Part shown: positions 5,881 to 55,275 of the stretch, one piece after another | How the letters are laid out: each line of letters starts with the position of its first letter | Numbering within the stretch: the first letter of the stretch is position 1 | Source: an uncultured delta proteobacterium | GTDB taxonomy: Bacteria > Desulfobacterota > Binatia > UBA9968 | DNA: 64,000 bases | Assembly: GCA_963745035.1 (NCBI GenBank) | Contig: CAVUVW010000014.1 | Span: forward strand, 864,001-928,000 | Reading direction: 5' to 3' | The notes under the pieces: model-generated | Told to the model about the DNA's origin: nothing | Databases searched by the model: none | What the model saw: the letters and a program-made list of their open reading frames with translations, nothing else | Position numbers and translations under genes: made by a program

Positions 5881-6372
5881 CTACTCGCCGATGAGGCGCA
5901 GGTTGTAGGCCGCCTTGAGGCTGGGAATCCAGTCGTCGAAGAATCGGATGCCGTGCGGCTCGCCAAGGCGATTCAGTTCGTCGAGTCCGATCGGCCCTTG
6001 GCGCAACCGCTCTCCGAAGTCCTTGAAGAAGAGCTCGAACCCACCCGGCGTGTACAGCTCGATGATGCGTGCGGGCTCGGGCCCCGCGTTCCACATGGTG
6101 TGGGGAATCCGGCGAGGCTTCAGCACCCAGCTGCCGGGCGTCGCCTTGACGACCTCATCGCCGACCCGAGCGTGCATCTCCCCCTCGAGCACGTAGAGCC
6201 ACACATCGTTCTCGTGCACGTGTGGCGGTAAGAGAAGACCCGGCTCGAACGGCTGCTCGATGATCGAGATGACCCCGTTCGTCTCCTCGCCGTAAAGCTT
6301 GATGATGACGCCGCTGGCGTCGTCACCCTCATCCCTAGCGATCAGCTTCTTGCCTTTGATGCGTTCACGCAT
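5881..6372 (-). CDS. Cupin domain protein
   Basis: PPHVHEND..YVLEGEM...PRRIPHTMWN motifs. RBS AAGGAGG. Confidence 0.9.
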   Translation of the reverse strand: MRERIKGKKLIARDEGDDASGVIIKLYGEETNGVISIIEQPFEPGLLLPPHVHENDVWLYVLEGEMHARVGDEVVKATPGSWVLKPRRIPHTMWNAGPEPARIIELYTPGGFELFFKDFGERLRQGPIGLDELNRLGEPHGIRFFDDWIPSLKAAYNLRLIGE

Positions 6373-6470
6373 GGCTCGCCTCCTTGTGATGTATCGGTTC
6401 TTCTGGATTAAATTGTAGGTCTGGTATTTCGCGCAGCAATTCGCAAAACTTGCAGACGAGGTATGCGAAG

Positions 6471-7367
6471 ATGCACGGTTTGGATTGGGATGATCTGCGT
6501 GCTTTTCTGGCGGTGAGCGAGAGCGGCTCCGTTTCCGGCGCGGCGAAGTTTCTGAACGTGAACCATTCTACCGTGCTCCGCCGCCTCGCAAGTTTGGAGA
6601 AACGGCTCGGCGCTCGACTGTTCGACCGCTTGCCGAGAGGGTATGAGCTAACCGCGCAGGGGGAGGAGCTGCGCAATCGACTGCACGGTGTAAGCGAACA
6701 GATCGACAGCGCGCAAAGAAGTTTGAGCGGGCGAGACCTCGGAGTCGCCGGGGCCATTCGCATCACGACCACCGATACCTTGATGCACGGGTTGCTGATG
6801 CCTTATCTCGCCGAATTTCGCGCTTCGAATCCGGCGATTCAGATGGAGATCGTGATCAACAATACTTTCTTGAATTTGACCCGCCGCGAAGCCGATATTG
6901 CGGTGCGTCCATCGAACACGGTTCCGGAGAATCTTGTGGGCAGGCGCGTCGGTTGTCTTCGGACGGCTATCTATGGCTCGAAGAAATATCTGAAAGAGAA
7001 CGGGGGAAAGAAAGAGTGGGCCGCCCACGTTTGGGTCGCGCCGGACGAAGCGTTATCGCATTTGGCCCAAGCAAAATGGATGCGAGACAATATTCCCGCA
7101 GATCGCATCGTGGTCCGTATCGACAGTCTTCTAGAGATGGTTGCTGCCGTGCGAGACGGTATGGGAGTGGGACTGCTGTTATGCATTCTCGCCGACCATG
7201 AACCAGACATCGTGCCTCTCGCGGAACCGATAGACGAACTCGAAACCGACCTCTGGATACTGACCCATCCCGCTCTCAAAGGCGTGGCTCGTGTCAAAGC
7301 ATTGACTGACTTTCTCTATGACAGACTGCGCGCGAACGACAGGCTGCTTTGTGTCAGTCCACGGTAG
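6471..7367 (+). CDS. LysR family transcriptional regulator
   Basis: LDWDDLRAFLAV..GSVSGAAKFLNVNHSTVLRRL HTH. Divergent from the cupin. Confidence 0.93.
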   Translation: MHGLDWDDLRAFLAVSESGSVSGAAKFLNVNHSTVLRRLASLEKRLGARLFDRLPRGYELTAQGEELRNRLHGVSEQIDSAQRSLSGRDLGVAGAIRITTTDTLMHGLLMPYLAEFRASNPAIQMEIVINNTFLNLTRREADIAVRPSNTVPENLVGRRVGCLRTAIYGSKKYLKENGGKKEWAAHVWVAPDEALSHLAQAKWMRDNIPADRIVVRIDSLLEMVAAVRDGMGVGLLLCILADHEPDIVPLAEPIDELETDLWILTHPALKGVARVKALTDFLYDRLRANDRLLCVSPR

Positions 7368-33116: not shown

Positions 33117-34277
33117 TCAGATCGCAAAAAGCGCGCGCGCGTTATCGCGAAAGACTTTTTGCCAATCGTTTTTGGAAAGGCTTTCTTTGCTTTCCTCGAG
33201 CACTTTTTGCGAATCAGGCCATGTGCTCGCCGGGTGCGGATAGTCGGAGCCGAACATGATCTTATCTACGTCGAGCACGCTGCCGACCATTTTCACGCCC
33301 AGCGGATCGTCAACGAAGCTGATCCAGATCTGTCGGTGGAAGTATTCGCTCGGCGGCATTTTCGGCAGGCTGACCGGACCATCGCCCGTAAGCCTGCGGC
33401 CGTCGCGGGTGCGCTGGTACCAGATGTCCAGTCCCTGAATCATGCTCGGCACCCAGGCAAGCCCCGCTTCGGCCATCACGATTTTCACTCTCGGATGACG
33501 ATCGAGCATGCCGGAGAAGATAAGACCGGTCATCGGCTCCAAGAGTTGTATGCCCGGCGGCTCTTGCGCGAAGCGCGACGCGGTGGCGACGACAACATTC
33601 GCCGCGCCGCGATTTCCTTCGTCAAGGCGCGTCTTCTTGACGAGCACCGCGAGATGAAATCCGATGGGTATGCCGACTTCTTCCGCGAGCGCCCAGAACG
33701 GCTCCCAGGCTTCATCATAAACCGGCGGATTCGCGCGCGACGCGAGAATGTTGACGTGACGGAGCCCGCCGCGTTTGCTCAGGCGTTCGAGCTCGTCGCG
33801 CGCCGCTTGCGGATCTTCCATCGAGAGCTGCGCTACGCCGATCAATCGTTCCGGCTTGGCGGCGCAGAATTCCGCCAGCCAATCATTGTAGGCCTCATAA
33901 CAGCGCCGCCGCAGCTCCGCATCGATGATCGGCATCGGGTCGGTCGGACCGTACATGATCGACGCATCGGCGCCGTCGCGATCCATGTCGTTCAGACGCA
34001 GATCGGCGGTGGTGGGGCGAAGCTCGCCCGGGCGCATCACGCCGCCGCGCTCGATCGCCCACATGGCCCCGCTGCCTTGCGCCGCCGTGTAGTAGCCATG
34101 CGGGCTGAAGGTCTGTCCCTCCCAGGTCCAGAATTCGCCTTTCTCTGTTTCCACGACTCGCGGCCCGCGCGCGCGCAAGTTTGCGGGCAGACGCTCGATC
34201 CAGAGATCCTTGGGCAGCCAACGCAAATCGATATGATCGTCAGCGGAGACAAAGCGCGTTTGAATACTATTTGCCAT
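33117..34277 (-). CDS. Amidohydrolase family protein (amidohydro_2)
   Basis: SADDH, DMDRDG, AYNDWLAEFC, IGFHL, MFGSDYPH. Confidence 0.92.
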   Translation of the reverse strand: MANSIQTRFVSADDHIDLRWLPKDLWIERLPANLRARGPRVVETEKGEFWTWEGQTFSPHGYYTAAQGSGAMWAIERGGVMRPGELRPTTADLRLNDMDRDGADASIMYGPTDPMPIIDAELRRRCYEAYNDWLAEFCAAKPERLIGVAQLSMEDPQAARDELERLSKRGGLRHVNILASRANPPVYDEAWEPFWALAEEVGIPIGFHLAVLVKKTRLDEGNRGAANVVVATASRFAQEPPGIQLLEPMTGLIFSGMLDRHPRVKIVMAEAGLAWVPSMIQGLDIWYQRTRDGRRLTGDGPVSLPKMPPSEYFHRQIWISFVDDPLGVKMVGSVLDVDKIMFGSDYPHPASTWPDSQKVLEESKESLSKNDWQKVFRDNARALFAI

Positions 34278-35259
34278 AGACTTTCTCGATATAACCGCTC
34301 GCTTCGATTTCCTTCAATACCGAGTTGTCGATGAAGTCTCTTGCATCGGCGTCCTTGGCCTTGGGTAGATCTTTGGCGAGCACGTCCAGGGTATCTTTGA
34401 TTGCTTGAGTCGAAGGGTAGGGTCTCTTGAGAAAATACGGCCGCAAGTAAGCGTAGCTCTGGCGGAGAACGTCGCGGTCGGAAATGCGCGTGTGTTTGGC
34501 GAGCACGCGCAACGAAAACTCTTCGTCGGTGGTCAAGATCTTCGCGCCCTCGATCATGGCCATGAGAAATTGCTTCGCTTCCAACCGATTCGCCGCCAAC
34601 GCGCTCTTCTTGACGCCGAGGCCGGACGAGACATAGTCCACGCCCAGGGTCGACATGTCGAAGAGCATCTTGAAGCCGGCCTTCTGCGCGACGAACGATG
34701 AGGGCGGCGACAGTGTGCCGGCGTGCACAAGCTTCGCTCGCAGCGCCGCCACCGTTTCCGGCACGCCGCCGACGCCGCGAATCATCACGTCCTTGTCCGG
34801 AACGAGTCCGGCTTGGCTCAGCGCAAGCCGCGTCGCGAAATCGGTGCTGCCGCCGAGGCCGGAGACGCCGACGATTTTGCCTTTCAAGTCTTGGAGCGAA
34901 TTGATTTCCGGCGCGCTGTGCATGGTGAAAAGCAGCTTGTCGCTGAAGTTGGCGATCAAAACCGCGTCGGCGCCCGCCAAACCGGCGGCGGGCACGGTGC
35001 GGCTGGAAACACCCTGAGCGAACTGCACTGAGCCGCCGACGAGCGCTTGAATCGTCCGGGCTCCGGTGACGATGTAGCGCACTTCCATGTTGTGTTTTTT
35101 GAATGCGCCGGCGTCGATGGCGATGAACAACGGTCCTTGCAGCAAGGACACCGCCGGTACGGCGACGTTGATCAGCTTGAGCGGCTCCGCGGAAACTGCC
35201 GGCGTTGCCCACGCAAAGAGAAGAACAGCGATCAGAAAACACAGGCTCGAGCGCTTCAT
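34267..35259 (-). CDS. ABC solute-binding protein (NMT1/SsuA-like)
   Basis: Signal peptide, DLKGKIVGVS..GGSTD, FIDNSVL.EIE.SG tail. Confidence 0.9.
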   Translation of the reverse strand: MKRSSLCFLIAVLLFAWATPAVSAEPLKLINVAVPAVSLLQGPLFIAIDAGAFKKHNMEVRYIVTGARTIQALVGGSVQFAQGVSSRTVPAAGLAGADAVLIANFSDKLLFTMHSAPEINSLQDLKGKIVGVSGLGGSTDFATRLALSQAGLVPDKDVMIRGVGGVPETVAALRAKLVHAGTLSPPSSFVAQKAGFKMLFDMSTLGVDYVSSGLGVKKSALAANRLEAKQFLMAMIEGAKILTTDEEFSLRVLAKHTRISDRDVLRQSYAYLRPYFLKRPYPSTQAIKDTLDVLAKDLPKAKDADARDFIDNSVLKEIEASGYIEKVYGK

Positions 35260-35539: not shown

Positions 35540-36592
35540 ATGAAAAGGCGAAATCCTTGGGTAGTGTTGGTTCTTTCACTGCTCGTCATCTATTTCGGAG
35601 CTTCACGTGAGGCGGGAGCGCAAAGCGACCCTTTCTATAGAGGAAAAACGATTCGCATCTATGTCGGTTCGACGGCCGGCGGATTTTATGACCGATGGGC
35701 TCGGCTGTTTGCCCGATACATGGGTAAATATATTCCCGGCAATCCCGAGATCATCGCGCAGAACATGCCGGGCGCCGGCTCGGTCATCGCCGCCAATCAC
35801 GTCTTCAACGTGGGCAAGCCCGATGGGCTGAGCCTGGTCATGCCGCTCAACAGCGTCTACGTCGACCAGCTCGCCGGACGGAAAGAAGTGCAGTTCGATC
35901 TCAGAAAGTTTCACTGGATCGGCTCTCCCGCGGTGGAGTCGGTGATTTTTTACATGCGCGCCGACACGCCGTACAAGTCGATTGCGGATATCATCAAGGC
36001 GAAGGAGCCACCCAAATGCGGCGGCACCGGTACCGCGAGCAGCGATTACATTCTGTCGAAGATATTGGAAGAGTTCGTAGGAGCCAAATTCAACAGCGTG
36101 CTCGGCTACGCCGGCGGCACGGAGATCGATATCGCGGTGGAAAAGGGCGAGGTGGTATGCCGCGCGCACAGCACGTCGGCGCATTTCGGCCGCGAACCCT
36201 TCGATACCTGGCACAAGAAGGGCTTTGACCGCCATCTGGTGCAGACTTCACGCAAGCGTGATTCCCGCGCCGCCGACGTACCAACGACCCACGAGATCTT
36301 CGATCAATATAAAGTTTCAGCGAACAACCGCCGCGTCGCCAATATCGTCTTGGCCGCCGGAGATTTCGGCCGCCCGATGATGGCGACTCCCGGCACTCCC
36401 GCAGACCGCGTCAAGATCCTGCGCGATGCTTTTGTCAAAACTTTGAGCGATCCCGAAGCCGTTGCCGAAGCGAAAAAGTCCAGAATGGATATCGATCCGA
36501 CGTCGGGCGAGGAATTGGAATCGCTCGTCAAAGAGATTTTCGACGCTCCACCGGAGGTTGCCGAGCGGGTAAAGAAAATTTTCGCCAACTGA
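35540..36592 (+). CDS. Tripartite tricarboxylate transporter (Bug/TctC-like) solute-binding protein
   Basis: FYRGKTI..VGSTAGGFYD, IPGNP...QNMPGAGS, FGRP..A.PGTP.DRV. Confidence 0.9.
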   Translation: MKRRNPWVVLVLSLLVIYFGASREAGAQSDPFYRGKTIRIYVGSTAGGFYDRWARLFARYMGKYIPGNPEIIAQNMPGAGSVIAANHVFNVGKPDGLSLVMPLNSVYVDQLAGRKEVQFDLRKFHWIGSPAVESVIFYMRADTPYKSIADIIKAKEPPKCGGTGTASSDYILSKILEEFVGAKFNSVLGYAGGTEIDIAVEKGEVVCRAHSTSAHFGREPFDTWHKKGFDRHLVQTSRKRDSRAADVPTTHEIFDQYKVSANNRRVANIVLAAGDFGRPMMATPGTPADRVKILRDAFVKTLSDPEAVAEAKKSRMDIDPTSGEELESLVKEIFDAPPEVAERVKKIFAN

Positions 36593-39338: not shown

Positions 39339-39731
39339 ATGGCAAAGACAACGATGAATCCGGACGGGCTGCCGACGCCGCGCGGCAGCTACTCCCTGGT
39401 CAATATCGCTCAGCCCGGCCGGATGGTTTTTATCGCCGGGCAAACCGCTTCGGATCCCCAGGGCAATGTGGTAGGTGTCGCCGACGTGCGAGCGCAAACG
39501 CGCTACATCCTGGAAAAAATCAAACGAGCCGTCGAGGCCGCGGGCGGCACAATCAACGATGTGGTTGCGCTGAGCGTATTCACGACCGATGTGCGCTATC
39601 ACCGCGACATCAACGAAGTGAGACGCGAGTTTCTGGAAGCCAACTTCCCCACGAGCACGATGGTGCAGGTGGTCGCCCTCGCGCGGCCGGAGTTGTTGCT
39701 CGAAATCAATGCGACGGCCGTTATCCCTTAG
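39339..39731 (+). CDS. RidA family protein
   Basis: YS....FIAGQ, VRREF...FPTSTMVQVVALARPELLLEINATA. Confidence 0.92.
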   Translation: MAKTTMNPDGLPTPRGSYSLVNIAQPGRMVFIAGQTASDPQGNVVGVADVRAQTRYILEKIKRAVEAAGGTINDVVALSVFTTDVRYHRDINEVRREFLEANFPTSTMVQVVALARPELLLEINATAVIP

Positions 39732-39798
39732 ATGGCAGGAGTCTTGCGGCTCCTTGGCGCAGGCAAATGTTTCGCAGCTTCCGAGAAAGGAAAATGGC

Positions 39799-40773
39799 AT
39801 GAAAGCAACGCTTGTTGCTCTCTTGGCGATGCTCCTTCACACAGCAAACGTCGAAGCTGCCGACAAGATGACCGTTGCCTATGCAACCCTAGGTCCGGCA
39901 TTGAGTCCGGGCTGGGTGACTTCGGAAAAGCGCATCTGGCAAAAGCATGGGCTGGACGTTGATCTGGTCTATCTCGGCGGCGGGGCGCGCTCCGTTCCGG
40001 CGCTTTTATCGAACAGCATTCAACTCTTTTTCGGCTCTGACACGGCAGCTTATGTCGCTGCCATTCAAGGCGCTAAGGTCGTGAAGCTCGGCGTTACCAT
40101 GAATACGCTTGGCTACTTTCTGATGACGGCGCCGGAGATTCGGTCGATCGCCGATCTCAAAGGAAAGGTATTGGGCATCGGGCTCGGACGCGATCTGCCT
40201 TACGCCCACTTGACGAAAATTCTTCGAGACAACGGCATCGATCCCAAGACGGATGTGAAAATTCTACCGCTTGGCGGCGGTCCCGGCGGATACATCGCGG
40301 CGCTAAAAGCTGGACGAATACAAGCATCGCTCATCATACCGCCGAATCACCTGGTCGCGGAAAAGGCCGGCCTGAAAGCGCTCACGAAAATCGATGTGCC
40401 GACCCTCGCCGGCGGGCTGAACACCACCCAGCCGTTGCTGGAAAAAAACCGGGACATGTTCCTGCGGTTTGTCAAAGGTTACCTCGAAGGCATTCATTTC
40501 ATGATCCGCAACAAGGAAGACAGCCTCAAGGTGTTCGCTAAGTACCTGCAAAATTCCGATCCCGCCGTGAACAACTATCTCTACGACGACATTACCGGCA
40601 GGATCGAAAAAGATCTGCGGCCGAGCAGCGAGGCGATTCGCTATATGCTCGATCTCATCGTGCTCGATCATCCGCAAGCGCAGCGCGTCACCGACAAAGA
40701 CTACTGGGATCTAAGCCTGCTCGACGACATCCGCCGCTCGGGGTTTATCGCTCAACTGCAAAAGGGCCACTAA
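39799..40773 (+). CDS. ABC solute-binding protein (NMT1/SsuA-like)
   Basis: Signal peptide, KHGLDVDLV, DLKGKVLGI, DLSLLDDIRRSG tail. Confidence 0.88.
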   Translation: MKATLVALLAMLLHTANVEAADKMTVAYATLGPALSPGWVTSEKRIWQKHGLDVDLVYLGGGARSVPALLSNSIQLFFGSDTAAYVAAIQGAKVVKLGVTMNTLGYFLMTAPEIRSIADLKGKVLGIGLGRDLPYAHLTKILRDNGIDPKTDVKILPLGGGPGGYIAALKAGRIQASLIIPPNHLVAEKAGLKALTKIDVPTLAGGLNTTQPLLEKNRDMFLRFVKGYLEGIHFMIRNKEDSLKVFAKYLQNSDPAVNNYLYDDITGRIEKDLRPSSEAIRYMLDLIVLDHPQAQRVTDKDYWDLSLLDDIRRSGFIAQLQKGH

Positions 40774-40865: not shown

Positions 40866-43034
40866 ATGAGACCTGCAAATGCGTTGTGCTTGGGTGTCGC
40901 CATTATCACGGTTGCCGTGCTTCTGGTGATGTCGTCGAATCGTCTCGGCAGCCAACAGAGGATGCCCGTGCGGATCGACAGCGATGACATCGGCGGCGTG
41001 GTGACGGGCGCCAACGGACCGGAAGCCGGAGCATGGGTGATCGCTGAGACGACCGATCTGCCGACCAAGTACGTCAAGATCGTCGTCACCGACGACCAGG
41101 GGCGCTACGTCATTACCCGATCTGCCGAAGGCGAGTTACGCGGTTTGGGTGCGTGGCTACGGCCTGGTCGATTCGCCCAAAGTGAAAAGCACGCCGGGAA
41201 AAAATCTCGACCTCAAAGCAGTCGCGGCGCCGAATGAAGCTGCGGCGGCGGAATACTATCCGGCGATTTACTGGTACTCGATGCTCAAAATCCCCGATAA
41301 GAGCCTGTTTCCCGGAACCGGCGCGAAGGGCAACGGCATGGCGGAAAAACTGGGACATCAGGGCGAATGGCTGGACGTCGTCAAAACCAACGGCTGTATG
41401 TCATGCCACCAGCTCGGCAACAAAGCGACGCGAACGATGCCCAAAGAGTTCGGCGATCTAAAATCTTCCACCGACGCTTGGCAGCGGCGCATTCTTTCCG
41501 GCCAGGCGATGACTTCCATGGTCAATGCTGCCGCTAGGATCGATTCTACTCGAGCTATGGAACTGTTTGCCGACTGGACCGATCGGGTCGCTGCCGGCGA
41601 GTTGCCCAAATCAAAGCCATCGAGGCCGCAAGGTGTCGAGCGCAATATCGTCGTCACCGTGTGGGATTGGAGCAACGCCAAAGCGTATCTCCACGATGAA
41701 ATCGCCACCGACAAGCGCAAGCCGACGATCAACGCCAATGGGCCGATCTACGGCGCGACCGAGTTGAGCACGGATCTCGTGCCCGTGCTCGATCCCGTGC
41801 GCCATCGAGCGTGGGAAATCAAACATCCGGTGCGTGATCCGAATACCCCGTCGGCGCGAACCGACGCGCTCACGCCGTCGCCTTATCTGGGGCGCCGAGC
41901 CGATCTGGGACAGCCAATCCAATCAGCACAATCCCATGCTCGATGAAAAGGCGCGCGTGTGGTTTACCGCGCGGGTCCGGTCTCCGGACAATCCGGCGTT
42001 CTGCAAAAAAGGCTCGGATCATCCCTCCGCCAAAGTGTTTCCGCTCGAGCGCGCGAACCGCCATGTATCGATGTACGATCCAAAAGCCAAGAAGTTCACG
42101 CTGATCAGCACCTGCTTTTCGACGCATCATCTGGTCTTCGCCGAAGACGCCAACAACACCTTGTGGCTCAGCAGCGGCGGCGCGGCAAGCAACGTGGTCG
42201 GTTGGATCAATCGGAAGATGTTCGAGGAGACAGGCGACGAAGTGAAGTCGCAAGGCTGGACGCCGTTCATCCTCGACACCAACGGCAACGGCAAACGCGA
42301 TGAATGGGTCGAACCGAAGGAACCGGTCGATCCGGCAAAGGACAAGCGTATCGTCGCGGGCCTCTACGGCATCGCCGTGAGCCCGGTCGACGGTTCGATC
42401 TGGGGATCGATGTTGGGATTTCCCAGCAGCATCGTGCGGGTCGTACCCGGCCCTAATCCAAGCGAGACCGCGTTGTCCGAGGTCTACGAAGTCCCGCTTG
42501 AGATGGGTGGATTCGGCATTCGCGGCAACGACATCGATCGCAACGGCGTCGTCTGGTCGTCGCTTTCGAGCGGCCATCTGGCAAGCTTCGACCGGCGCAA
42601 ATGCAAAGCGACCGCTTAACGGGCCCAAGGCCACGGGCAAGCACTGCCCCGAAGGCTGGACGCTTTACCAGTTCCCGGGACCGCAGTTTGAAAATCTTTC
42701 CGAGCCCGGCAGCGTCGAGTCGAGCTACTATACCTGGGTCGATCAGTTCGACACTTTCGGCTTGGGCAAGGACGTTCCGATCGCCACCGGCAATTTGAAC
42801 GATTCCTTGCTCGCGTTGGTCGATGGAAAGTTCGTCAACCTCCGCGTGCCGTATCCTCTCGGGTTTTACGCCAAGTGGCTGGATGGCCGCATCGACAATC
42901 CCAAAACGGGCTGGAAGGGCAAGGGCCTGTGGTCGACCACCGGCACGCGCACGCCGTTTCACATGGAAGGCGGCAAGGGCACGAAACCCAAAGTAGTGAA
43001 GTTCCAGCTGCGGCCCGATCCGTTGGCGAAGTGA
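40866..43034 (+). CDS. Secreted carboxypeptidase-regulatory-like domain / mono-heme c / beta-propeller protein, paralogue 1 (frameshifts near 41115, 41887, 42610)
   Basis: Four consecutive ORF pieces are colinear with 43342-45510. CMSCHQLG heme motif. Confidence 0.85.
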
Positions 43035-43063
43035 TGGGAACGCAGACAGTGTGGTCGAAGCAC

Positions 43064-43096
43064 TAGTCGTGGTAAAAACCGACGACTAAACTTTTT
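43064..43096 (+). terminator. Putative intrinsic terminator
   Basis: TAGTCGT-GGT-AAAA-ACC-G-ACGACTA hairpin followed by AACTTTTT. Confidence 0.5.
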
Positions 43097-43341
43097 GAAA
43101 ACGAATGTCGAAATCCGGCGTGGGGCGAAGTTATTATGTTCTGCCTACTCGCTTCGAACTTCGCCAATTCAGTCAGTGACATGATGGCAAACTACCCGCC
43201 CATCGATCACTGGGATATCGCAGTATGAAATTTATCGAATGACGATGCCACTGGATCATCGTTGAGTGCTCGGCTCCGCTGTTTGCAGCACTGCCGGTAT
43301 TCAGTAGTTCCTGTGGTGAGCTAGCGAGGAAGCAGCGTGTC

Positions 43342-45510
43342 ATGAAAAGGATCAAACCGGATTATTGCCTGTTGGTCGTCCTCGCGATTTTCTTGTTTGT
43401 GTCACCGGCTCGTTTGAGCAGCCAGCAAAACGCCGCCAGCGTCCGCATCGACGGCGACGACATTGGCGGTGTGGTCATCGGCTCTAATGGAGCCGAAGCG
43501 GGCGTCTGGGTCATTGCCGAAACGACCGAGCTTCCGACCAAGTACGCCAAGATAGTCGTAACCGACGACCGTGGACGCTACGTCCTCCCCGATCTTCCTA
43601 AAGCCAATTACAATATATGGGTGCGCGGTTACGGACTCGTTGATTCGCCGAAAGTTCGGAGCGCTCCAGGAAAGATTCTCAACCTCAAAGCTGTCGTCGC
43701 TCCGAACGAAGCCGCGGCGGCGGAATACTATCCGGCGATTTACTGGTATTCGATGTTGAAGATTCCGGAAAAAAGCGAATTTCCTCTGGGCAAAGCTCAG
43801 ACTCAGGGGCATTGGTTGGCCGGCGTCAAGACCCATGGCTGCATCTCGTGCCATCAGCTAGGCAACAAATCCACGCGCGTTATTTCGAAAGAATTAGGCG
43901 AATTCAAATCGTCTCTAGAGGCGTGGCAGCGCCGCGTCCTTTCCGGACAGGCGAGCGAAGTCATGATGCGCAACTTGAACGACGTCGAGCCTAAGCGCGC
44001 GCTGGCATTGTTTGCCGAATGGACCGATCGGATCGCTGCCGGCGAATTACCCAAGACCAAGCCTGCACGGCCGCAAGGCATCGAGCGCAACCTCGTCATC
44101 ACTCTATGGGACTGGGCCACGGGCAAGGCTTACCTGCACGATGAGATCGCGAGCGACAAGCGTAATCCAACGGTCAATGCCAATGGTTTGCTCTACGGTT
44201 CTCCGGAGGACAGCACGGACTTTATGCCGATGCTCGACCCGGTTCGCAACAAAGCGACCGAAGTTAAGGTGCCGGTACGCGATCCGAATACGCCGGACAC
44301 GATGTTTATCGCGCAGGGAAATACCCTGATGCTGGCGCCTTCGCCATTCTGGGGCACGGAGCGTGTGTGGCAGAGTCAGGCGTCGGTTCACAATCCGATG
44401 TTCGACGAGAAAGGTCGGGTGTGGCTTACCTCGAGAATTCGTCCGCCACAAAATCCGGCGTTTTGCAGGAAAGGCTCCGATCATCCGTCGGCAAAACTTT
44501 TCCCGATCGAAAGAGCTGGACGACATCTTTCAGTGTACGAGCCGAAGACCCAGAAATTTACGCTTATCGATACCTGCTTCAGCACGCACCATTTGATTTT
44601 TGCCGAAGACGCCAACAACACGCTCTGGCTCAGCAACGGCGGCTCGGCCGGCAACGTGCTCGGCTGGTTGAATACGAAAATGTTCGACGCCACCGGTGAC
44701 GAGCAAAAATCTCAAGGCTGGACGGCATTCATCCTCGACACCAATGGCAATGGCCGGCGCGACGAATATGTCGAGCCTGATCAACCGCTCGACCCGACGA
44801 AGGACAAACGGATCGTAGCGGGCTACTACGGTATCGGCTTCAACCCGATAGACGGATCGATCTGGGGTTCCGTGCTGAGTTTTCCCGGCGCTGTCGTGCG
44901 CGTGAGTCCGGGCGACAATCCGCCGGCATCGGCGTTGACGGAAATTTTTGAAGTGCCGTGGAACGAGCCCAAAGCGACGGTGAACGGCTACGGCCCCCGC
45001 GGTATGGACATCGATCGAAACGGTGTCGTCTGGGTGCCGCTCGCCAGCGGCCATCTGGCGAGCTTCGACCGCCGGAAATGTAAAGGGCCTCTTAACGGTC
45101 CGGCCGCGACAGGAAAACATTGTCCCGAAGGTTGGACGCTCTATCCATTTCCCGGTCCGCAGTTCGACAGTGTGTCGGATTCGGGCAGCGCGCAGGCAAG
45201 CTACTACACTTGGGTGGATCAGCACGACACCTTCGGCTTGGGGCGCAACGTGCCATTCGCCACGGGCAATCTCGCCGATTCATTGGAAGCGTTCGTCGCC
45301 GGAAAGTTTGTCAGTCTTCGGGTTCCTTACCCGATGGGATTCCATGCAAAAGGCATGGACGGGCGGATCGATAATCCAAAGAGCGGTTGGAAGGGCAAGG
45401 GAGTGTGGTCCGCCTATGCCGGTAGAGCGACCAATCATATCGAAGGCGGCAAGGGCACGAAACCAAAAGTGATAAAGTTTCAGTTACGCCCGAATCCGTT
45501 GGCGAAGTAG
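43342..45510 (+). CDS. Secreted carboxypeptidase-regulatory-like domain / mono-heme c / beta-propeller protein, paralogue 2
   Basis: Signal peptide; VVTDDRGRYVLPDLP..Y.IWVRGYG; CISCHQLG; propeller blades (DEKGRVWL, DRNGVVWV); DTNGNGRRD Ca-loop. Confidence 0.88.
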   Translation: MKRIKPDYCLLVVLAIFLFVSPARLSSQQNAASVRIDGDDIGGVVIGSNGAEAGVWVIAETTELPTKYAKIVVTDDRGRYVLPDLPKANYNIWVRGYGLVDSPKVRSAPGKILNLKAVVAPNEAAAAEYYPAIYWYSMLKIPEKSEFPLGKAQTQGHWLAGVKTHGCISCHQLGNKSTRVISKELGEFKSSLEAWQRRVLSGQASEVMMRNLNDVEPKRALALFAEWTDRIAAGELPKTKPARPQGIERNLVITLWDWATGKAYLHDEIASDKRNPTVNANGLLYGSPEDSTDFMPMLDPVRNKATEVKVPVRDPNTPDTMFIAQGNTLMLAPSPFWGTERVWQSQASVHNPMFDEKGRVWLTSRIRPPQNPAFCRKGSDHPSAKLFPIERAGRHLSVYEPKTQKFTLIDTCFSTHHLIFAEDANNTLWLSNGGSAGNVLGWLNTKMFDATGDEQKSQGWTAFILDTNGNGRRDEYVEPDQPLDPTKDKRIVAGYYGIGFNPIDGSIWGSVLSFPGAVVRVSPGDNPPASALTEIFEVPWNEPKATVNGYGPRGMDIDRNGVVWVPLASGHLASFDRRKCKGPLNGPAATGKHCPEGWTLYPFPGPQFDSVSDSGSAQASYYTWVDQHDTFGLGRNVPFATGNLADSLEAFVAGKFVSLRVPYPMGFHAKGMDGRIDNPKSGWKGKGVWSAYAGRATNHIEGGKGTKPKVIKFQLRPNPLAK

Positions 45511-45581
45511 TACGATAGCTTATCTCGCCAATCTTAAATTCGCGGCGTCGCAACCGACGCGGGAATTAGGGTGGGAGGTTT

Positions 45582-46337
45582 ATGAAACATATTGAATTCA
45601 CGATGCCATTAAATCATCAGTGGATGCCGGACGAGATATTGCCGACCTCTGTCAAATTTTTTCTCGGGCCGAAGAACCATCAGGAAAAGGGCATGGTTAT
45701 TGGCAGTGATTCGGGCACCTGCCTGACGCTGCCTTCTGTGTTCGAAGCTTTTCGCAAAACCGCGCGGCTCGATGAGGTGCCTGTCGATAAAATGGTTTTA
45801 CGGCCTGCCGCTGTGCTCGCTGTCGCCAAGAGCGAGGGAGAAGAAATAACCAAGGCCGACGTGCAGAGGGCGTTCGAGGCGGCGCGACCGGCGAAAGGGG
45901 ACGCGATCCTGATTGCGACCGGTTGGGGCGACAAGCCCTGCGGTGAGTCGTACGTCCTCGGCAGTCCGCATCTCACGCTGGAAGCGGCGCAATATTTGGC
46001 GCCGCGCATGAACGAGAATCAAAATGACTTGCTGTTGACGGACACGGCGCTCGTCGGCTGGCCGGACAAACATCTCATGCCGGAGTGGTGCTCTTTTCTG
46101 CCGCCGCCGGCGGCCGAATCCGCCGAGGCGCGCATGTATTTGCATCTTTACGATGGCGAAAAAGCGAAAAAGGATTTTGCCGTCGAGATCGAATTTGCCC
46201 GAGCTGGAATCATGACGGTGCGGAAGTTGGTTCACTGCGGGCAGATTCAGAAAGACAGGATCAAAATTATCGTGTCGCCGTTGAAAGTTGTGCGCGGGGT
46301 TGCTTCAACGTGCAGAGTCGTAGCTTTGGAGGACTGA
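45582..46337 (+). CDS. Divergent cyclase (KynB-fold) family protein A
   Basis: IEFTMPL, LDEVPVDKMV, GDAILIATGW, PHLTLEAAQYL, PLKV..G.ASTCRVVA. Confidence 0.82.
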   Translation: MKHIEFTMPLNHQWMPDEILPTSVKFFLGPKNHQEKGMVIGSDSGTCLTLPSVFEAFRKTARLDEVPVDKMVLRPAAVLAVAKSEGEEITKADVQRAFEAARPAKGDAILIATGWGDKPCGESYVLGSPHLTLEAAQYLAPRMNENQNDLLLTDTALVGWPDKHLMPEWCSFLPPPAAESAEARMYLHLYDGEKAKKDFAVEIEFARAGIMTVRKLVHCGQIQKDRIKIIVSPLKVVRGVASTCRVVALED

Positions 46338-46338
46338 G

Positions 46339-47169
46339 ATGAGACTGATCGATTTGACGATGCCGATTTGGGAAGGCGCGGGTTACGGTGAGATTTTGCC
46401 TTTCACAAATTCTTCCGGTGCGATTGCACGAATACATGTACTACGACAAACACGGCATGCGCATGACGCGCATGAAGCTCGATGGCGAGACTGGCAGTCC
46501 GTTCATGGTGCCGCATCAACGCAACCCTTCGATCCGACGCCGCTACAACCCGATCCGAAGTTTTCATGGCTGCTCGACGAAATACCGCTCGAAAAACTTA
46601 TTCTGAGAGACACGGTGATTCTCGACATCAGAGTTCCGGAGGCGCACGAGATCACGCCCGACGAGATGGAGACGGCTATTAAACAAGCCGACTACCGAGA
46701 AGGCGACGAGGTGCTGCTCCGGACAGGTTGGGGCACGCGCGAGCGCGCCTACGAGCTTGGCATCGACTACTACAAGAGAACTCCGAGCATCCACTTCGAT
46801 GCCGCGGCGCTATTGGCGAAAAAAATGGACGGGATGGGGAGCTCGCTGTTCATGACCGATTGCGGCCTGGTGAATCCTCCGAGAGTGCAGGGCAATAACT
46901 GGTTTCGCGGTGACAAGCCGTTGGTGCCGCATCCAAAGCCGTGGCCGTCGGCTGAAGCGCGCGAGAGAGTGATCGATTTGGGCGCGCACCGGCACGGCAG
47001 CCCGCATCCGAGCAGCTACGGCGCTCTCATCAAAAAAGCGATGGCTGGCTGCAAGTGCCTGGTCGATTGCGACGAGATTTCGCAGCCGCGTGTGAAGATG
47101 ATTGTGTTGCCTCTGCTGATCAAAAAAGGGGGAGCTTCCCCTTGCCGCTTCATAGCGGTAGAGGAGTAG
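46339..47169 (+). CDS. Divergent cyclase (KynB-fold) family protein B (compensating frameshifts near 46410 and 46523)
   Basis: MRLIDLTMPI, LDEIPLEKL, GDEVLLRTGW, LPLLIKKGGASPCRFIA. The true middle segment (PVRLHEY...DGETGSPFMVPH) is in the alternate frame. Confidence 0.82.
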   Translation: MRLIDLTMPIWEGAGYGEILPFTNSSGAIARIHVLRQTRHAHDAHEARWRDWQSVHGAASTQPFDPTPLQPDPKFSWLLDEIPLEKLILRDTVILDIRVPEAHEITPDEMETAIKQADYREGDEVLLRTGWGTRERAYELGIDYYKRTPSIHFDAAALLAKKMDGMGSSLFMTDCGLVNPPRVQGNNWFRGDKPLVPHPKPWPSAEARERVIDLGAHRHGSPHPSSYGALIKKAMAGCKCLVDCDEISQPRVKMIVLPLLIKKGGASPCRFIAVEE

Positions 47170-47235
47170 TTCTCTCAAAGGCAGGATGGAAAGCGCCGCC
47201 TGGCGAGCCACGCGGCGCCTCATTTTCTGACTGAC

Positions 47236-47601
47236 TCAACTTTTGTTTGAATTTTCCACGTCTGCTCGCACCGGCCGCACGCCGAAGGGCTCGGAGCGAT
47301 TGCCGAACAGCACCAGGGTGGAGGGGCCCACACTGGTGAGCTGGTAGTATTCCTTCGCAGGTAAAAACACGATGTCGTTTTTCTCCAGCACCCTTTCGTG
47401 TCCGTCGATGCTCTTGACCGAGCACTTGCCGTCGATGACGAGAAAAGTTTCCGGCGACTGATGATAATGCATCGGCGTGCCGTCGCCCGGCTCGAAGTAG
47501 AGCATCCATGAGCGAAAATTATCGGTGCCGAAGAGTTGCACGTTTCTGAGCTTTTCCCGGCCTGCTTCGTCGATCTTTTTGCTCAAGCTGACAAACTCCA
47601 T
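47236..47601 (-). CDS. Cupin domain protein
   Basis: PGDGTPMHYHQSPETFLVIDG. RBS GGAGG. Confidence 0.85.
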   Translation of the reverse strand: MEFVSLSKKIDEAGREKLRNVQLFGTDNFRSWMLYFEPGDGTPMHYHQSPETFLVIDGKCSVKSIDGHERVLEKNDIVFLPAKEYYQLTSVGPSTLVLFGNRSEPFGVRPVRADVENSNKS

Positions 47602-47804
47602 GTCGCCTCCTGCGCGGCTGATTTGCCCTCCAAACTAGGCAGCCAAGATCGCGTTGTCAATCGCGCAAGTGGGGGCAGGCTGCCCCGATCAAACGTTTAT
47701 CGCGCCGCACATTTCCAGTTCAGTAGGTAATTTTTTACCCTTCGCAATAGCGATCGTCGAAGTGAAACAATCGGGAAATCAGGCAATTCCCGTTTTTTTT
47801 CGCG

Positions 47805-48716: not shown

Positions 48717-49028
48717 ATGGTCATATTGCACGTCACCGTTCAGGTGAAGCCCGAGCATGCGCGGGAATTTCTCGAAGCCGTGCGCCACGATGCGGAGCAT
48801 TCGGAGAGAGACGAACCCGGTTGTCTCCGCTTCGACGTGGTTCAGGACCGTGACGACGCCAACCGGTTTTACTACTACGAAGTCTACAAGGACGAGGCGG
48901 CTCTGGAAGCGCATCGTCAAACGCCGCACTTCAAACTCTACGCCGAGAAGACCGCGCCGTGGCTGGCAGCGCCGCCGGAGCGGCGCTTCGGCAAGAACCT
49001 GATTCCTGCCGACTCGGAATGGCGCTGA
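48717..49028 (+). CDS. Antibiotic biosynthesis monooxygenase family protein (LsrG/YgiN-like)
   Basis: EPGCLRFDV, YEVYKDEAALEAHRQTPHF. RBS GGAGG. Confidence 0.9.
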   Translation: MVILHVTVQVKPEHAREFLEAVRHDAEHSERDEPGCLRFDVVQDRDDANRFYYYEVYKDEAALEAHRQTPHFKLYAEKTAPWLAAPPERRFGKNLIPADSEWR

Positions 49029-49144
49029 GCGCGTTCGTCCTCAAACGTTCTTGCCTCGACATAAAGGAAATCGTATGGTACCGCGCCGAGCGCGATGGGC
49101 GCGTGGGCGCATCCAATTTCCGATCGATCTTGACCGGAGGAACC

Positions 49145-50143
49145 ATGAAACTTTCACGGCCATTCTGGTTGTTCGTTCCCGCGATTTTTCTTGCAGGGGC
49201 GTTCGTGAGCGGCGTCTGGGCGCAAGACAAAGTTAGGCTTGCGCACAGCGCGTTGGAGAGCAGCAATGCCGTGTGGTACGTGGCGCAGGCGCGCGGTTAC
49301 TATAAGAAGCACGGACTGGACGCCGATTTGCTCTTCATTCCCAGCACGACGACGAGTGTTTCGAGCTTGGTGGCCGGCGATGTGCAAGTGGCCAACGCTT
49401 CGGGCGGAGGCGTGGCGAGCGCGGTGGTTGCCGGAGCGGATCTCGTCATGGTCGCCTGCTATCTCAATTCGCTGCCTTACGAGCTGGTCGTGAATGAAAG
49501 CATCAAATCGGCCGAGGATCTCAAGGGAAAAAGTGTCGGTATAAGCCGGGTCGGCAGCGCCTCGGACGTGGCGGCGCGCGCGTTGATCCGCGGTCTGGGG
49601 ATGGAGCCGGACAAGCAAGTGATGATCATGCAGGTCGGCGGTCCCGCGGAGCGGGCTGCGTCCTTTCGCACCGGCAGGATCGCGGGGTTTCCATCGCCGC
49701 CGGGCATCATCCACCTGACCAAAGGCATACCGCACCGTATCCTAATCAGCACGGCGGACTTTCAGAAGCGTTTCGAATTTCCTTATATCTGCGCGACGAC
49801 GACGAAAAACTATCTGGCGCGCAACAGAGATATCGTGAAAAGAGTGGTGATGGCGCACGTCGAGGCGACGCACTTCTTCAAGAAACAGAAGGAAGAGACC
49901 AAGAAAATCATCTCCAAATACAGCAGAATCACCAATGAAGATTATCTGGAGTCCGCTTACGCCGCGACCGCGAAACTCTACGACATGGTGCCGCTGGTCA
50001 CCCAGCCCGGGGTAGAGGTACAGATCAAGGAAGCCACCAGCCGCAAACCCGGCATGCAGCTGCGCTTTGAGGATATGGTCGACGAAAGCCTGGTGCGCGA
50101 GTTGGAAAAAAGCGGCTTCATCGAAAAGATCTACAAGCAGTGA
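49145..50143 (+). CDS. ABC solute-binding protein (NMT1/SsuA-like)
   Basis: Signal peptide, DLKGKSVGISRVGSASD, VDESLVRELEKSGFI. Confidence 0.9.
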   Translation: MKLSRPFWLFVPAIFLAGAFVSGVWAQDKVRLAHSALESSNAVWYVAQARGYYKKHGLDADLLFIPSTTTSVSSLVAGDVQVANASGGGVASAVVAGADLVMVACYLNSLPYELVVNESIKSAEDLKGKSVGISRVGSASDVAARALIRGLGMEPDKQVMIMQVGGPAERAASFRTGRIAGFPSPPGIIHLTKGIPHRILISTADFQKRFEFPYICATTTKNYLARNRDIVKRVVMAHVEATHFFKKQKEETKKIISKYSRITNEDYLESAYAATAKLYDMVPLVTQPGVEVQIKEATSRKPGMQLRFEDMVDESLVRELEKSGFIEKIYKQ

Positions 50144-50186: not shown

Positions 50187-51194
50187 CTACTTGATCCCCG
50201 CCAAACCTAGGTACTGGAGATCGACAAAGCGCTCGGCGGCGGGAAGCGGCTCCTTGACTGTCCCGGCTTCGCCCATGAAAGCGATCACCTGCGCCAAGCC
50301 TTTAACGTTGATCTCCGCTTGGCGCGGCAACACGTTACGCTCCGGCTCGAAAAATAACTTGAGCGTCTGCTCTGCGATTTCCGGGCTCGAATCGATCGTT
50401 TCAACGATGATCTTGACGACGGTGGGGCGATTGGCCGGATCGCGGATGAACTTGAACGCGCCGCCGAGTGCGCGCACGTAGCGCACAAGAGCATTTTTGT
50501 TCGCCTCTGCCCACGAGCGGCGCACCGCGGTCACCGTGTAAAGAAACTCGGGGACCGCTTCATTGGATATCCCGAGCAGTCGATACCCTTCCTTCAAAGC
50601 TTGCAGGTCGTGCGGCTGGCCGAGCGGCACGGCGTCGCATTCGCCGCGCTTCAAGCAGGCGTAGCGCGCCGGCGTTCCTTCGATCGTCTTGAACCGAAAC
50701 TCTTCTTTGCGCAGCCCGCGCAGAGCGAGCAGCTTACGGATGGAAATCGTGATCGTGCCGGCTTCGTCGGCCAAGCCGATCAGTTTTCCCTTTAGTTCGG
50801 CGATGGTGGCGACGTCCGGCTTGGCAATCAAACTATAAATCGGATTGTTGAATTCGGCGGCGACGGCCACGGCGTCGGCGCCCGCGAGCGCGGCGCGGAT
50901 CAAGAACGGCGTCGCGATGTGCGTCACGTCGGCGCTGCCGTCGTTGAGTGAATCGATCATTCGATCCGCGCCCCCCGGCAGCGGCACGACGACGCGAAAA
51001 TCTAAATTCTCGCGACGAAAGAAGCCGGCGCGGTCGGCGACGGATACCGGCAGTGAAAAAATGCTGCGAAGCGCGGAATAAGTTTGCGCGTAGCGCAGTG
51101 GGGTCGTTTGCGCGGCAAGGGGCTGGACGGCGACAAAAAAGGCCGCGCCGCTAACGACCAGCAGCCAAAATCGCAAGAAAACTTGCGCGCGCAT
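50187..51194 (-). CDS. ABC solute-binding protein (NMT1/SsuA-like)
   Basis: Signal peptide, GFFRRENL, ELKGKLIG, RFVDLQYL. Confidence 0.88.
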   Translation of the reverse strand: MRAQVFLRFWLLVVSGAAFFVAVQPLAAQTTPLRYAQTYSALRSIFSLPVSVADRAGFFRRENLDFRVVVPLPGGADRMIDSLNDGSADVTHIATPFLIRAALAGADAVAVAAEFNNPIYSLIAKPDVATIAELKGKLIGLADEAGTITISIRKLLALRGLRKEEFRFKTIEGTPARYACLKRGECDAVPLGQPHDLQALKEGYRLLGISNEAVPEFLYTVTAVRRSWAEANKNALVRYVRALGGAFKFIRDPANRPTVVKIIVETIDSSPEIAEQTLKLFFEPERNVLPRQAEINVKGLAQVIAFMGEAGTVKEPLPAAERFVDLQYLGLAGIK

Positions 51195-51898: not shown

Positions 51899-52870
51899 GT
51901 GAAGCAGACGGTGTCGGCTTTTTTGCTGATAGCTTTTCTGGCTCCGCCGCTGGGTGCGCAGGAGAAAATCAAATTTCCCGTCGGCGTCTCGTCGAAGGTG
52001 CTGGGCTATGGACATCTGTGGGCGGCGTGGCGATTGAAGTACTTCGAGCGCGAAGGGCTCGACGCCGAAGTGGTCGTGATGCGCGGCACTGCTCCGGGCG
52101 TGCAAGCGTTGATCGCCGGATCGATCTCCGCCGGACTGATCGCCAACGACGGTCCCATCACCGCCGTGGAGCAGGGAATGGACCTCGCGATGATCGCGAG
52201 CGGCAGCAAAATCACCCACATGCTGATCGGGGGAAAAAACTACAAGACCTGGGAGGACCTGCGCGGCGCGACCATCGGCTCTTCGACTCTCACTTCCGGC
52301 ACGGCGTTCGTCTTGAGAAGAGCGCTCAAGCTCAAGGGCCTGGAATACCCGCGCGACTACAAGTTGCTCGCCGTCGGCGGCACCGGGCCGTCTTTCGCCG
52401 CCATGAACACGGGGCAGATCGCCGCGGCGATGCAAGCGGTGCCCTATGCCTTTCAGGCGCAGGACGCCGGCTTCAATGTCATTGGCCGCATCGCGGATGT
52501 GCTGCCCAATTATTTGTTGTCGGCCTATTCCATTCGTCGCAGTTGGGCGGAAAAGAATCGACCGCTGGTCGTGCGCTTTCTCAAAGCCGTAGTGCGCGCA
52601 AAAAAGTGGTTCGAGCAGGATAGAAAAGCCGCGGTCGAATTCCTGGCAAAAGAGTTCCAGCTTACGCCGAGCCTCGCCGAAAAGGGCCTCGATTATTATT
52701 TAACTCATCAGGCGTGGCATCCCGAGCTGGACATCGAAATGGACGGGCTCAAAACCGTCGTCGATATTTACGCTGAGCAGAACGGCTTCAAGGGACCGAT
52801 TCCCAATCCGGAGAAGTATGTCGATCAGAGCTACCTCAGACAGGCGCTGAAGGAGCTGGGATTACGATGA
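51899..52870 (+). CDS. ABC solute-binding protein (NMT1/SsuA-like)
   Basis: Signal peptide, YFEREGL, DLRGATIG, KYVDQSYL. Confidence 0.9.
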   Translation: MKQTVSAFLLIAFLAPPLGAQEKIKFPVGVSSKVLGYGHLWAAWRLKYFEREGLDAEVVVMRGTAPGVQALIAGSISAGLIANDGPITAVEQGMDLAMIASGSKITHMLIGGKNYKTWEDLRGATIGSSTLTSGTAFVLRRALKLKGLEYPRDYKLLAVGGTGPSFAAMNTGQIAAAMQAVPYAFQAQDAGFNVIGRIADVLPNYLLSAYSIRRSWAEKNRPLVVRFLKAVVRAKKWFEQDRKAAVEFLAKEFQLTPSLAEKGLDYYLTHQAWHPELDIEMDGLKTVVDIYAEQNGFKGPIPNPEKYVDQSYLRQALKELGLR

Positions 52871-54294: not shown

Positions 54295-55275
54295 ATGACG
54301 ACAAATACATCGAATGAAGCAACCAACCGACCCGTCGGCAGGGACACGATACGATCGCGCCTGGTTTTGGAAGTCGCATCGGAGATGGTCGATCAGCGGA
54401 GTTGGCCGCATCGTCAGGCGCAGGTAAGCTTGCGGCCACAGGGCGCGGATGGGTGGGCGGTCAATATGATCGCGAGCGACGGGCCGGCGGCGATCGAGCA
54501 AGTTGCTAGCGGCGCGATGCAGCTCGCGATCAGCAATCCGGCGGGTTTTTTGGCGCTTGCGGTGCGGGGCACGGGACCGTTCACGGCGCCGATCCCGCTG
54601 CGCGCAATTACCATCATTCCGTCACCGGATCAGCTTGCTTTCGCCGTGACGGAACAAACGGGACTCAAGTCCTTGCGCGACGTGCGCGAACGGCGCTATC
54701 CGCTGCGCGTTTCTCTGCGCGGACAGAGAGATCACGCGCTTCATCCGGTCGTCAACGAAGTTTTGGCGGCGGCCGGCTTTTCGCTCGATGACATCGTCTC
54801 GTGGGGCGGGCAGGTGCGCTACGACGACGGTCTGCCGCAGAATAAGAATCGTCTCGGAGCGGTGACGCGCGGCGAAGTCGACATGGTGGTCGACGAGGCT
54901 GTGCGCGGTTGGATCAATTCGGCGGCCGGCGACGGGATGCGCGTGCTGCCGCTCGACGACGCGATGCTGAACAAGCTCGAAGCGATTGGCTTGCGCTGCG
55001 CGGTGATTCCGCGCAAGCGCTACCCGAATTTAGCAGCCGATGTTCCTACCCTCGATTTCAGCGGTTTCGCCGTTTACACCCACGCGAACGTGCCGGACGA
55101 AGTGGTCAGCGCCATCTGCGCCGCGCTGGAAGCGCGCAAGGATCGCATCGGCTGGCAGGAGCCCGGCCCGCTGCCGCTCGATCAGATGTGCCAGGACACG
55201 CCGGATGCTCCGCTGGCGATTCCGCTCCATCCAGCGGCGGAAAAGTTTTGGCGGGCGTGCGGGTACCTAGCTTAA
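54295..55275 (+). CDS. TAXI-like solute-binding-fold protein without signal peptide
   Basis: GTGPF...LRAI, GLKSLRDV, VPDEVV..IC.AL, IPLHPAAEKFW. Hydrophilic N-terminus. Confidence 0.8.
   Translation: MTTNTSNEATNRPVGRDTIRSRLVLEVASEMVDQRSWPHRQAQVSLRPQGADGWAVNMIASDGPAAIEQVASGAMQLAISNPAGFLALAVRGTGPFTAPIPLRAITIIPSPDQLAFAVTEQTGLKSLRDVRERRYPLRVSLRGQRDHALHPVVNEVLAAAGFSLDDIVSWGGQVRYDDGLPQNKNRLGAVTRGEVDMVVDEAVRGWINSAAGDGMRVLPLDDAMLNKLEAIGLRCAVIPRKRYPNLAADVPTLDFSGFAVYTHANVPDEVVSAICAALEARKDRIGWQEPGPLPLDQMCQDTPDAPLAIPLHPAAEKFWRACGYLA

Follow-up and report, generated by a model that had tools for sequence, protein, structure and literature searches.

The window analysed here is a stretch of 64,000 nucleotides (nt) from an uncultured delta proteobacterium of the class Binatia (contig CAVUVW010000014.1, positions 864,001–928,000 of the forward strand), and our subject is a pair of adjacent genes within it that both encode proteins of the cyclase fold. 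Gene A, an open reading frame (ORF) of 251 amino acids, occupies positions 45582–46337 (+) and ends with a TGA stop codon at 46335–46337, and gene B, an ORF of 276 amino acids, occupies 46339–47169 (+) and begins with an ATG at 46339. The spacer between stop and start is thus 1 nt, as recorded in the initial annotation of the window, which was made from the sequence without database searches. A purine-rich stretch (GGTGGGAGG, 45570–45578, +) ends 3 nt before the ATG of A and is Shine–Dalgarno-like by consensus resemblance only. A Shine–Dalgarno-like GGAGGA (46328–46333, +) lies within the last codons of A, 5 nt upstream of the ATG of B, a placement that would fit translational coupling from A to B. 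A promoter and terminator scan of 43000–47700 gave nothing exceeding shuffled expectation.

Both proteins matched the Pfam family PF04199 ('Putative cyclase') above its cut-off of 23.1 bits, A with 44.5 bits (E 2.3e-11) and B with 41 bits (E 2.8e-10), the match of B beginning only at residue 77. The short motifs that the initial annotation had singled out as common to the two proteins are present in both: EILP at residues 18–21 of each, SAEAR at 180–184 in A and 204–208 in B, and TD..LV at 153–158 in A and 173–178 in B. A aligned over its full length with a B homologue at 31% identity (E 3e-30), and a profile–profile comparison of the two families gave a probability of 100 and an E-value of 1.6e-39; by these comparisons A and B are paralogues. 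Homologues of A were up to 98% identical to it and all 251–255 amino acids long, with a conserved N-terminus, and full-length homologues of B had 276 amino acids. NCBIfam gave zero matches for A or B, the Pfam and NCBIfam scans found no catalytic motif of a known kind in either, and neither the Pfam scan nor a search for longer forms revealed an attached DNA-binding or signalling domain.

The segment ETGSPFMVPH, which the initial annotation had assigned to B in a corrected frame, lies outside the 276-residue open frame and was found in the +1 frame, in an ORF at 46388–46606. Alignment of the DNA with three related loci (L001, L002 and L005) located one extra base in the window at ~46413–46418 and one missing base (a C) at ~46524–46527; the stretch 46413–46527 (+), which holds this segment and whose true coding frame is +1, is out of frame in the open ORF. 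In protein alignments, residues 26–62 of the open frame were read out of frame and homologues there agreed with the +1 frame, and outside these residues full-length B homologues agreed with the open frame of the window. We also counted substitutions against 73 related loci over the 105 nt that separate the two indels: the 1430 differences were distributed over +1-frame codon positions 1, 2 and 3 as 241, 112 and 1077, and the ratio of synonymous to non-synonymous codons was 951:227 in the +1 frame compared to 125:1096 in the open frame. This pattern shows that the shifted stretch of B retains the signature of a coding region when read in the +1 frame.

As a further check on the indels, the B region was compared with contigs of four public sequencing runs, each from a different study. 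Every contig spanning the first indel place had one base fewer than the window (data sets X1, X6 and X7), and every contig spanning the second had one base more (X1, X3, X6 and X7); across 883 nt, one X1 contig showed just 4 letter differences and 2 gaps relative to the window. Together, the homologues, the codon-position statistics and the contigs of the four studies indicate that the two one-base indels are most likely errors in the source assembly (7.4 Mb in 28 contigs), the gene most likely being intact in nature, although this strain may instead have acquired both by genuine mutation in the very recent past. We rejected programmed frameshifting as an explanation for B, as the two shifts are opposite, of one base each, 110 nt apart and absent from all relatives and from the four data sets. 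The initial annotation had judged the changes in these genes too extensive to be sequencing error, a judgement that stands for the motif substitutions described below; B as deposited nevertheless holds the two probable assembly errors. The seemingly intact 276-residue ORF conceals 36 out-of-frame codons, and compensating indels of this type evade the usual pseudogene checks.

At the place of the canonical motif H-x-G-T-H-x-D-x-P-x-H, A has D-S-G-T-C-L-T-L-P-S-V at residues 43–53 (DSGTCLTLPS, 43–52) and B, in the corrected frame, has E-T-G-S-P-F-M-V-P-H-Q, so that only G, T/S and P of the motif are retained. The canonical E-x-L is occupied by RKL in A (214–216) and by KCL in B (239–241), bearing out the loss of the His motif and of the 'ENL' Glu that had been read from the sequence. 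Positions were mapped on an alignment that combined 28 canonical sequences with 32 of A and 27 of B. Where canonical members have the metal and proton-shuttle residues H, H, D, H, H and E, A has D43, C47, T49, V53, E202 and R214, and intact orthologues of B have E50, P54, M56, Q60, Y227 and K239; all six are replaced in both proteins. Among the matches listed, HxG[TS]HxD was missing from every one of the 120 A and the 120 B homologues, and it occurred in 32 of the 150 representatives listed from an exhaustive search, these being distant, canonical ones. The lack of the His motif in all 240 listed homologues therefore marks its loss as a family trait rather than chance or local decay, the latter being what the initial annotation had said retention of the motif in homologues would indicate.

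The replacing residues were themselves highly conserved. In 118 full-length A homologues, residue 43 was Asp in 110 and Glu in 8, residue 47 was Cys in 107 and Ser in 11, residue 202 was Glu in 106 and Asp in 12, and residue 214 was Arg in 117 and Lys in 1; the position of the motif Asp was taken by Thr, Met or Ala and that of the His in the proton shuttle by Val, Met or Leu. In 107 full-length B homologues, E50 was found in 107, P54 in 104, M56 in 102, Q60 in 101, Y227 in 101 and K239 in 105. Many invariant charged residues lie in and around the former pocket of the A and B homologues. The occurrence of Ser at position 47 in 11 of the 118 A homologues weakens the case for a Cys-based mechanism, which the initial annotation had raised as one option. 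In isatin hydrolase A (LaIHA), His69, His73, Asp75 and Gln219 ligate manganese, the proton shuttle consists of His79, His207 and Asp193, and the enzyme is active as a dimer; Glu172 of Bacillus anthracis KynB (BaKynB) stands at the Gln219 position (PMC6117287). In both of these enzymes the first His and the Glu/Gln position ligate one and the same metal ion; in A and B the two positions are taken by an acid (D43 and E50) and a base (R214 and K239).

To place the pair in a wider set, we collected 86 related loci, 6 from genomes and 80 from metagenomes. A B-type gene starts 5–9 nt past the last sense codon of A in 79 of them, and the remaining 7 end within A or less than 80 nt beyond it and are too short to tell, leaving no counter-example. 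In loci showing both genes, these lie head to tail with 1–5 nt from the stop of A to the start of B, and most of the 86 carry an unbroken pair. Where A was 64–71% identical, B was 83–88% identical, and ratios of non-synonymous to synonymous substitution rates (dN/dS, NG86 method) were 0.07–0.12 for A (15 loci) and 0.03–0.10 for B (13 loci); several of these comparisons approached saturation in dS. These values indicate strong purifying selection on both genes, with B held about twice as tightly as A.

The source genome holds one such pair, together with one canonical cyclase on another contig. Among 301 sampled genomes of the same phylum, A (E ≤ 1e-20) was found only in the window's own genome, a sample that is not proof of absence; this result points to the pair being an accessory, patchily distributed module. 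The taxa named by the sources for homologues were Binatia, 'Deltaproteobacteria' and Chloroflexota, and the runs containing the sequence were soil and rhizosphere samples. A itself was absent from the ESM Atlas, and a stored A homologue there fell only into 'putative cyclase' clusters, mostly from Candidatus Binatota. A fraction of 0.13–0.17 of sampled words was present in three metatranscriptome runs, a figure that has no bearing on expression. A and B form a conserved, uncharacterised and clearly functional family of soil bacteria. The canonical cyclase, the only one in the source genome, lies at positions 4053–4760 (−) of locus L087 (contig C26 of genome G000) with its His motif and Glu intact; it overlaps the end of the upstream ORF, adjoins a gene resembling that of dihydrodipicolinate synthase (DHDPS) and is a candidate for a true amidohydrolase.

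Structure prediction gave a model of A with a mean predicted local distance difference test score (pLDDT) of 94.9, for which the top Foldseek matches were isatin hydrolase (PDB 5nna), cyclase-phosphotriesterase (8f9x) and KynB (4co9), with E ~1e-13 and template modelling (TM) scores of 0.65–0.78. For B we modelled an orthologue from locus L001 (P0391), which gave a pLDDT of 82.3 and, when modelled alone, was poorly defined at residues 17–23 and 189–215; its top matches were 8f9x, 8hmo and 5nna (E ~1e-12). At E ≤ 1e-7, both models matched PF04199 structures only. A sequence search of solved structures found no match for A, and for a B homologue the sole match was isatin hydrolase A, a weak one (E 7e-4) over the C-terminal 60 residues.

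We also predicted the complex of A from the window with B from L001, thus combining two genomes, each chain with its own family alignment. The interface score (ipSAE) was 0.93 compared to 0.00 for the best control, and of the reference sets 116 of 157 solved complexes, but only 2 of 215 mismatched pairs, attain the mark applied to this score. At least 94% of contacts were common to the runs, and the pLDDT of the partner was at least 85. The predicted interface includes the N-terminal strands, residues 28–43, 46 and 52–55 of A, residues 35–49 and 52 of B, and the C-terminal strands, and these residues place the former motif loops next to the interface. The prediction supports the formation of a heteromer by A and B, in line with the suggestion of the initial annotation.

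By sequence, the nearest relatives of A and B were two clades of PF04199 metagenome proteins with an 'E-x-G-T-R' motif (E 1e-34 to 1e-10), in which the first His is mostly Glu, the second His is Arg and the Glu position holds G, A, L or T. In A and B, R or K occupies the Glu position and there is no cation at the second His; no row had both. We built a quick, unrooted tree from rows collected by a search with A, which recovered A and B as groups, each with support 100 (11 of 12 rows for A, 12 rows for B), and joined them with the 'E-x-G-T-R' clades in one set of 47 rows (SH-aLRT 99), separate from 55 rows of canonical and xYEH sequences; it did not resolve the branching order within the set of 47. 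This topology is consistent with the His site having been lost once, ahead of the duplication that would have given rise to A and B. Other PF04199 clades without the His motif were seen among the metagenome representatives P0253–P0296 and P0321–P0376, and the 'L-x-G-T-Y-x-E-x-x-x-H' clade formed one branch of 17 rows (support 97). The 'E-x-G-T-R' and 'L-x-G-T-Y-x-E-x-x-x-H' clades all appear to be uncharacterised.

Genomic context was assessed in 58 loci from the two nearest ORFs on each side, with 136 of 197 candidate ORFs scanned in addition to all those taken from L001 and L002; most of the remainder had fewer than ~125 amino acids or belonged to loci with a flank layout already scanned. 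An ATP-binding cassette (ABC) ATPase with a TOBE domain lies directly upstream of the pair on the same strand in 17 of the 58 loci, preceded, where the flank is long enough, by an SBP_bac_8 binding protein and a permease; in L001 the solute-binding protein is encoded at 5644–6762. This ABC system bears a sub-threshold likeness to the polyamine and 2-aminoethylphosphonate importers of NCBIfam, which names no substrate. Binding proteins of the NMT1 type stand beside the pair in about a dozen loci, and further neighbours were an MFS_3 transporter (5 loci), Amidohydro_2 (7), RidA (4), a Rieske protein (3) and a citryl-CoA-lyase-like protein (4); the pair was also found without transporters, beside catabolic enzymes. 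Genes of the kynurenine pathway (tryptophan 2,3-dioxygenase and kynureninase) were absent from the scanned neighbour ORFs of the 58 loci and from the window. The picture that these neighbourhoods suggest is of a self-contained two-gene module travelling among uptake and catabolic genes.

In the window itself, a Cupin_2 gene of 121 amino acids (47236–47601, −; PF07883, E 1.4e-11) is convergent to the pair, and a Cupin_2 ORF has the same position and orientation in the closest relatives, loci L011, L012, L019 and L023. At 47199, between B and the cupin gene, data set X1 has one base fewer than the window, which may be another assembly indel or a strain difference. On the other side of the pair, a gene for a 722-residue protein (43342–45510, +) precedes A in the same orientation at a distance of 72 nt. 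The protein has an N-terminal signal-like segment, a weak CarboxypepD_reg match and one CXXCH haem-c motif (HGCISCH), and searches found no NCBIfam family and no PDB relative for it; it was rejected as a functional partner because the other scanned loci lack it beside the pair. A tandem paralogue of this gene (63–74% identical) at 41149–43034 (+) is split over three overlapping frames (ORFs at 41149–41946, 41834–42619 and 42498–43034, +) and is either a pseudogene or the site of further assembly indels. Frame changes also break A and/or B into pieces in two related loci, L005 (8001–9588), which comes from a long contig of an uncultured-bacterium metagenome-assembled genome, and L033 (1996–2494). 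Orphan periplasmic binding-protein genes are unusually dense in this part of the window, with six of the NMT1 type and one of the TctC type within 21 kb (34267–35259 (−), 35540–36592, 39709–40773, 48959–50143, 50187–51194 (−), 51899–52870 and 54295–55275).

The reading that we prefer, with a probability of roughly 0.55, is that A and B form an obligate heterodimeric, metal-free enzyme that acts on a small polar compound by means of a built-in cation, with the main pocket in B. Under this model, A and B would pair pseudo-symmetrically, as the subunits of canonical homodimers do, with each former pocket beside the interface. D43 and R214 in A, and E50 and K239 in B, are probably salt-bridged and would fix a cation at the former metal place. 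B, the more constrained subunit, is probably the main catalytic or ligand-binding one. The chemistry would most likely be that of a hydrolase or lyase, and the substrate a small, polar and probably carboxylate- or amide-bearing compound imported by the transporters that usually flank the pair; on this reading the protein is not a kynurenine formamidase. Some support for the built-in cation comes from the 'E-x-G-T-R' clades, in which an Arg sits at an alternative former ligand position.

Two other functional explanations have to be set against this one. In one of them, A still binds a metal through Asp43, Cys47 (or Ser) and Glu202 and carries out hydrolysis of the canonical type, and B is non-catalytic and shapes the pocket of A or stabilises it. 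It is common for an active enzyme to form heteromers with an inactive paralogue, metals are readily ligated by Asp, Cys and Glu, and those in A are placed at three positions that ligate or flank the metal of isatin hydrolase and are conserved there as D/E, C/S and E/D. Moreover, the cyclase-like esterase MGS0169, a PF04199 enzyme with a modified motif, is still metal dependent (PMC5341072). However, Arg214, present in 117 of 118 homologues, would put a cation into this very site at the metal-ligating Glu/Gln position, the motif Asp and the shuttle His have given way to Thr/Met/Ala and Val/Met/Leu, residue 47 varies to Ser, and the supposedly dead partner B is more conserved than A, and we consider such an altered metal site in A rather unlikely. 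Of similarly low probability is a non-catalytic heterodimer that binds a small molecule or a protein, as a sensor, chaperone or transporter accessory. The loss of the whole catalytic apparatus from both subunits, the lack of any known catalytic motif and the frequent position of the pair directly after ABC transporter genes would agree with a pseudoenzyme, but the very strong conservation and the invariant charged pocket residues would be expected of an enzyme rather than a pseudoenzyme, some loci have the pair next to catabolic enzymes with no transporter, and no DNA-binding or signalling domain is attached to either protein.

Decay of kynurenine formamidase copies into pseudogenes, or sequencing artefacts, might be suspected from the double frameshift in B, the neighbouring gene split over three frames and the broken copies in L005 and L033. 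This explanation is refuted for the family and has only a very slight chance of being correct: the substitutions are common to all 240 listed homologues, dN/dS is 0.03–0.12, most of the 86 loci have both genes unbroken, the shifted stretch of B evolves as coding sequence in the +1 frame, the contigs of four studies lack the indels, and a different contig of the genome carries its own canonical cyclase, His motif included. Several observations do weigh against a metal-free heterodimer with a built-in cation. Former ligand positions in A are still Asp, Cys/Ser and Glu and could hold a metal; the acid–base contact was deduced from homologous positions and not from model coordinates; and the cation pattern is known from only three or four independent clades, with some 'E-x-G-T-R' rows lacking an acid at the first position. 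The passing score of the complex may reflect the prediction model's memory of solved KynB and isatin-hydrolase homodimers, the complex was modelled from A of the window and B of another genome rather than from a pair of one genome, and the search for longer forms yielded no fused A–B protein, which is weak evidence. Finally, the neighbours vary widely, and as the loci are related metagenome contigs, their counts are non-independent and point to no substrate.

The metal-free heterodimeric enzyme could also be part of a broader picture, which we put forward tentatively and regard as the less probable side of an uneven bet. A and B would then represent a metal-free class derived from a metallohydrolase scaffold, in which an Arg or Lys held by a carboxylate takes the place of Zn or Mn and acts as electrophile or oxyanion stabiliser. 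The duplicated copies would have become an obligate asymmetric heterodimer, with two unlike pockets at its interface, that catalyses a reaction new to the fold, and the sister 'E-x-G-T-R' clades would use the same trick with the Arg elsewhere in the former site. On this broader view, a whole branch of PF04199 labelled 'kynurenine formamidase' would be doing different chemistry in soil bacteria. If the built-in cation is real, the pair would show cleanly how nature can convert a metalloenzyme fold to a metal-free one. An obligate heterodimer of paralogues would be useful for studying the re-invention of an active site, and the strict pairing of the genes makes them an easy target for co-expression. 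There is also a consequence for annotation. The names routinely given to PF04199 proteins, including many of the listed homologues of A and B, are 'kynurenine formamidase' and 'cyclase family protein', and because the A/B branch cannot work like KynB, such names mislead pathway reconstructions for abundant soil lineages.

Among the known PF04199 enzymes, the kynurenine formamidase KynB (EC 3.5.1.9; PDB 4co9, 4cob and 4cog) has the same fold as A and B (Foldseek E ~1e-11 to 1e-13, TM 0.53–0.78) and has in common with them a conserved TGW, an Asp after the central strand and a C-terminal P-L...R. KynB is a homodimer with a binuclear zinc site formed by H-x-G-T-H-x-D-x-P-x-H and, further on, a His and the Glu of I-(L/I)-E (PMC6117287 and PMC5341072). 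A and B, in contrast, are two different paralogues, each with an insertion of 40–60 residues; their dimeric architecture, which would match that of KynB, is predicted only. All six positions of the KynB site are replaced in both, and the scanned neighbour ORFs of the 58 loci and the window include no gene for tryptophan 2,3-dioxygenase or kynureninase. Since the metal site is replaced and kynurenine-pathway neighbours are lacking, the label 'kynurenine formamidase' given by the sources to homologues of A and B is not supported.

The best structural match of A is isatin hydrolase (IHA and IHB; 5nna, 4j0n and 4m8d), which resembles A and B in length and in an insertion after the central Asp and, as noted above, is a dimer in its active form. 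It is a manganese enzyme with a GLQC/GLAS signature (PMC6117287). Compared to 5nna, a B homologue has K-C where IHA has Q-C and A has R at the position of the IHA Gln, and none of the His and Asp residues of the isatin hydrolase site is retained in A or B. Cyclase-phosphotriesterase (C-PTE, 8f9x), the top structural match of B and the second-ranked one of A, is described as a metallohydrolase (PMC12135135); its metal ligands are absent from A and B.

We found no literature on His-less or heteromeric PF04199 proteins in a search that left subscription journals mostly outside, and no close solved structure for A or B. A precedent for change of the His motif within PF04199 is provided by MGS0169 (PDB 5ibz), a structural match for both A and B, and by trans-dienelactone hydrolase, both of which have a modified motif. 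In MGS0169 this motif is Q-x3-Q-x-D-x3-H, in which the Asp and the final His survive; manganese or magnesium still stimulates the enzyme, and one protomer of its dimer contributes to the pocket of the other (PMC5341072). Compared to MGS0169, both the motif Asp and the final His are replaced in A and in B. Thus, as judged from hidden Markov model matches and predicted fold, A and B belong to the PF04199 fold family, and by sequence they go beyond any characterised member of it in the loss of the site, of which nothing that binds the metal in those enzymes remains.

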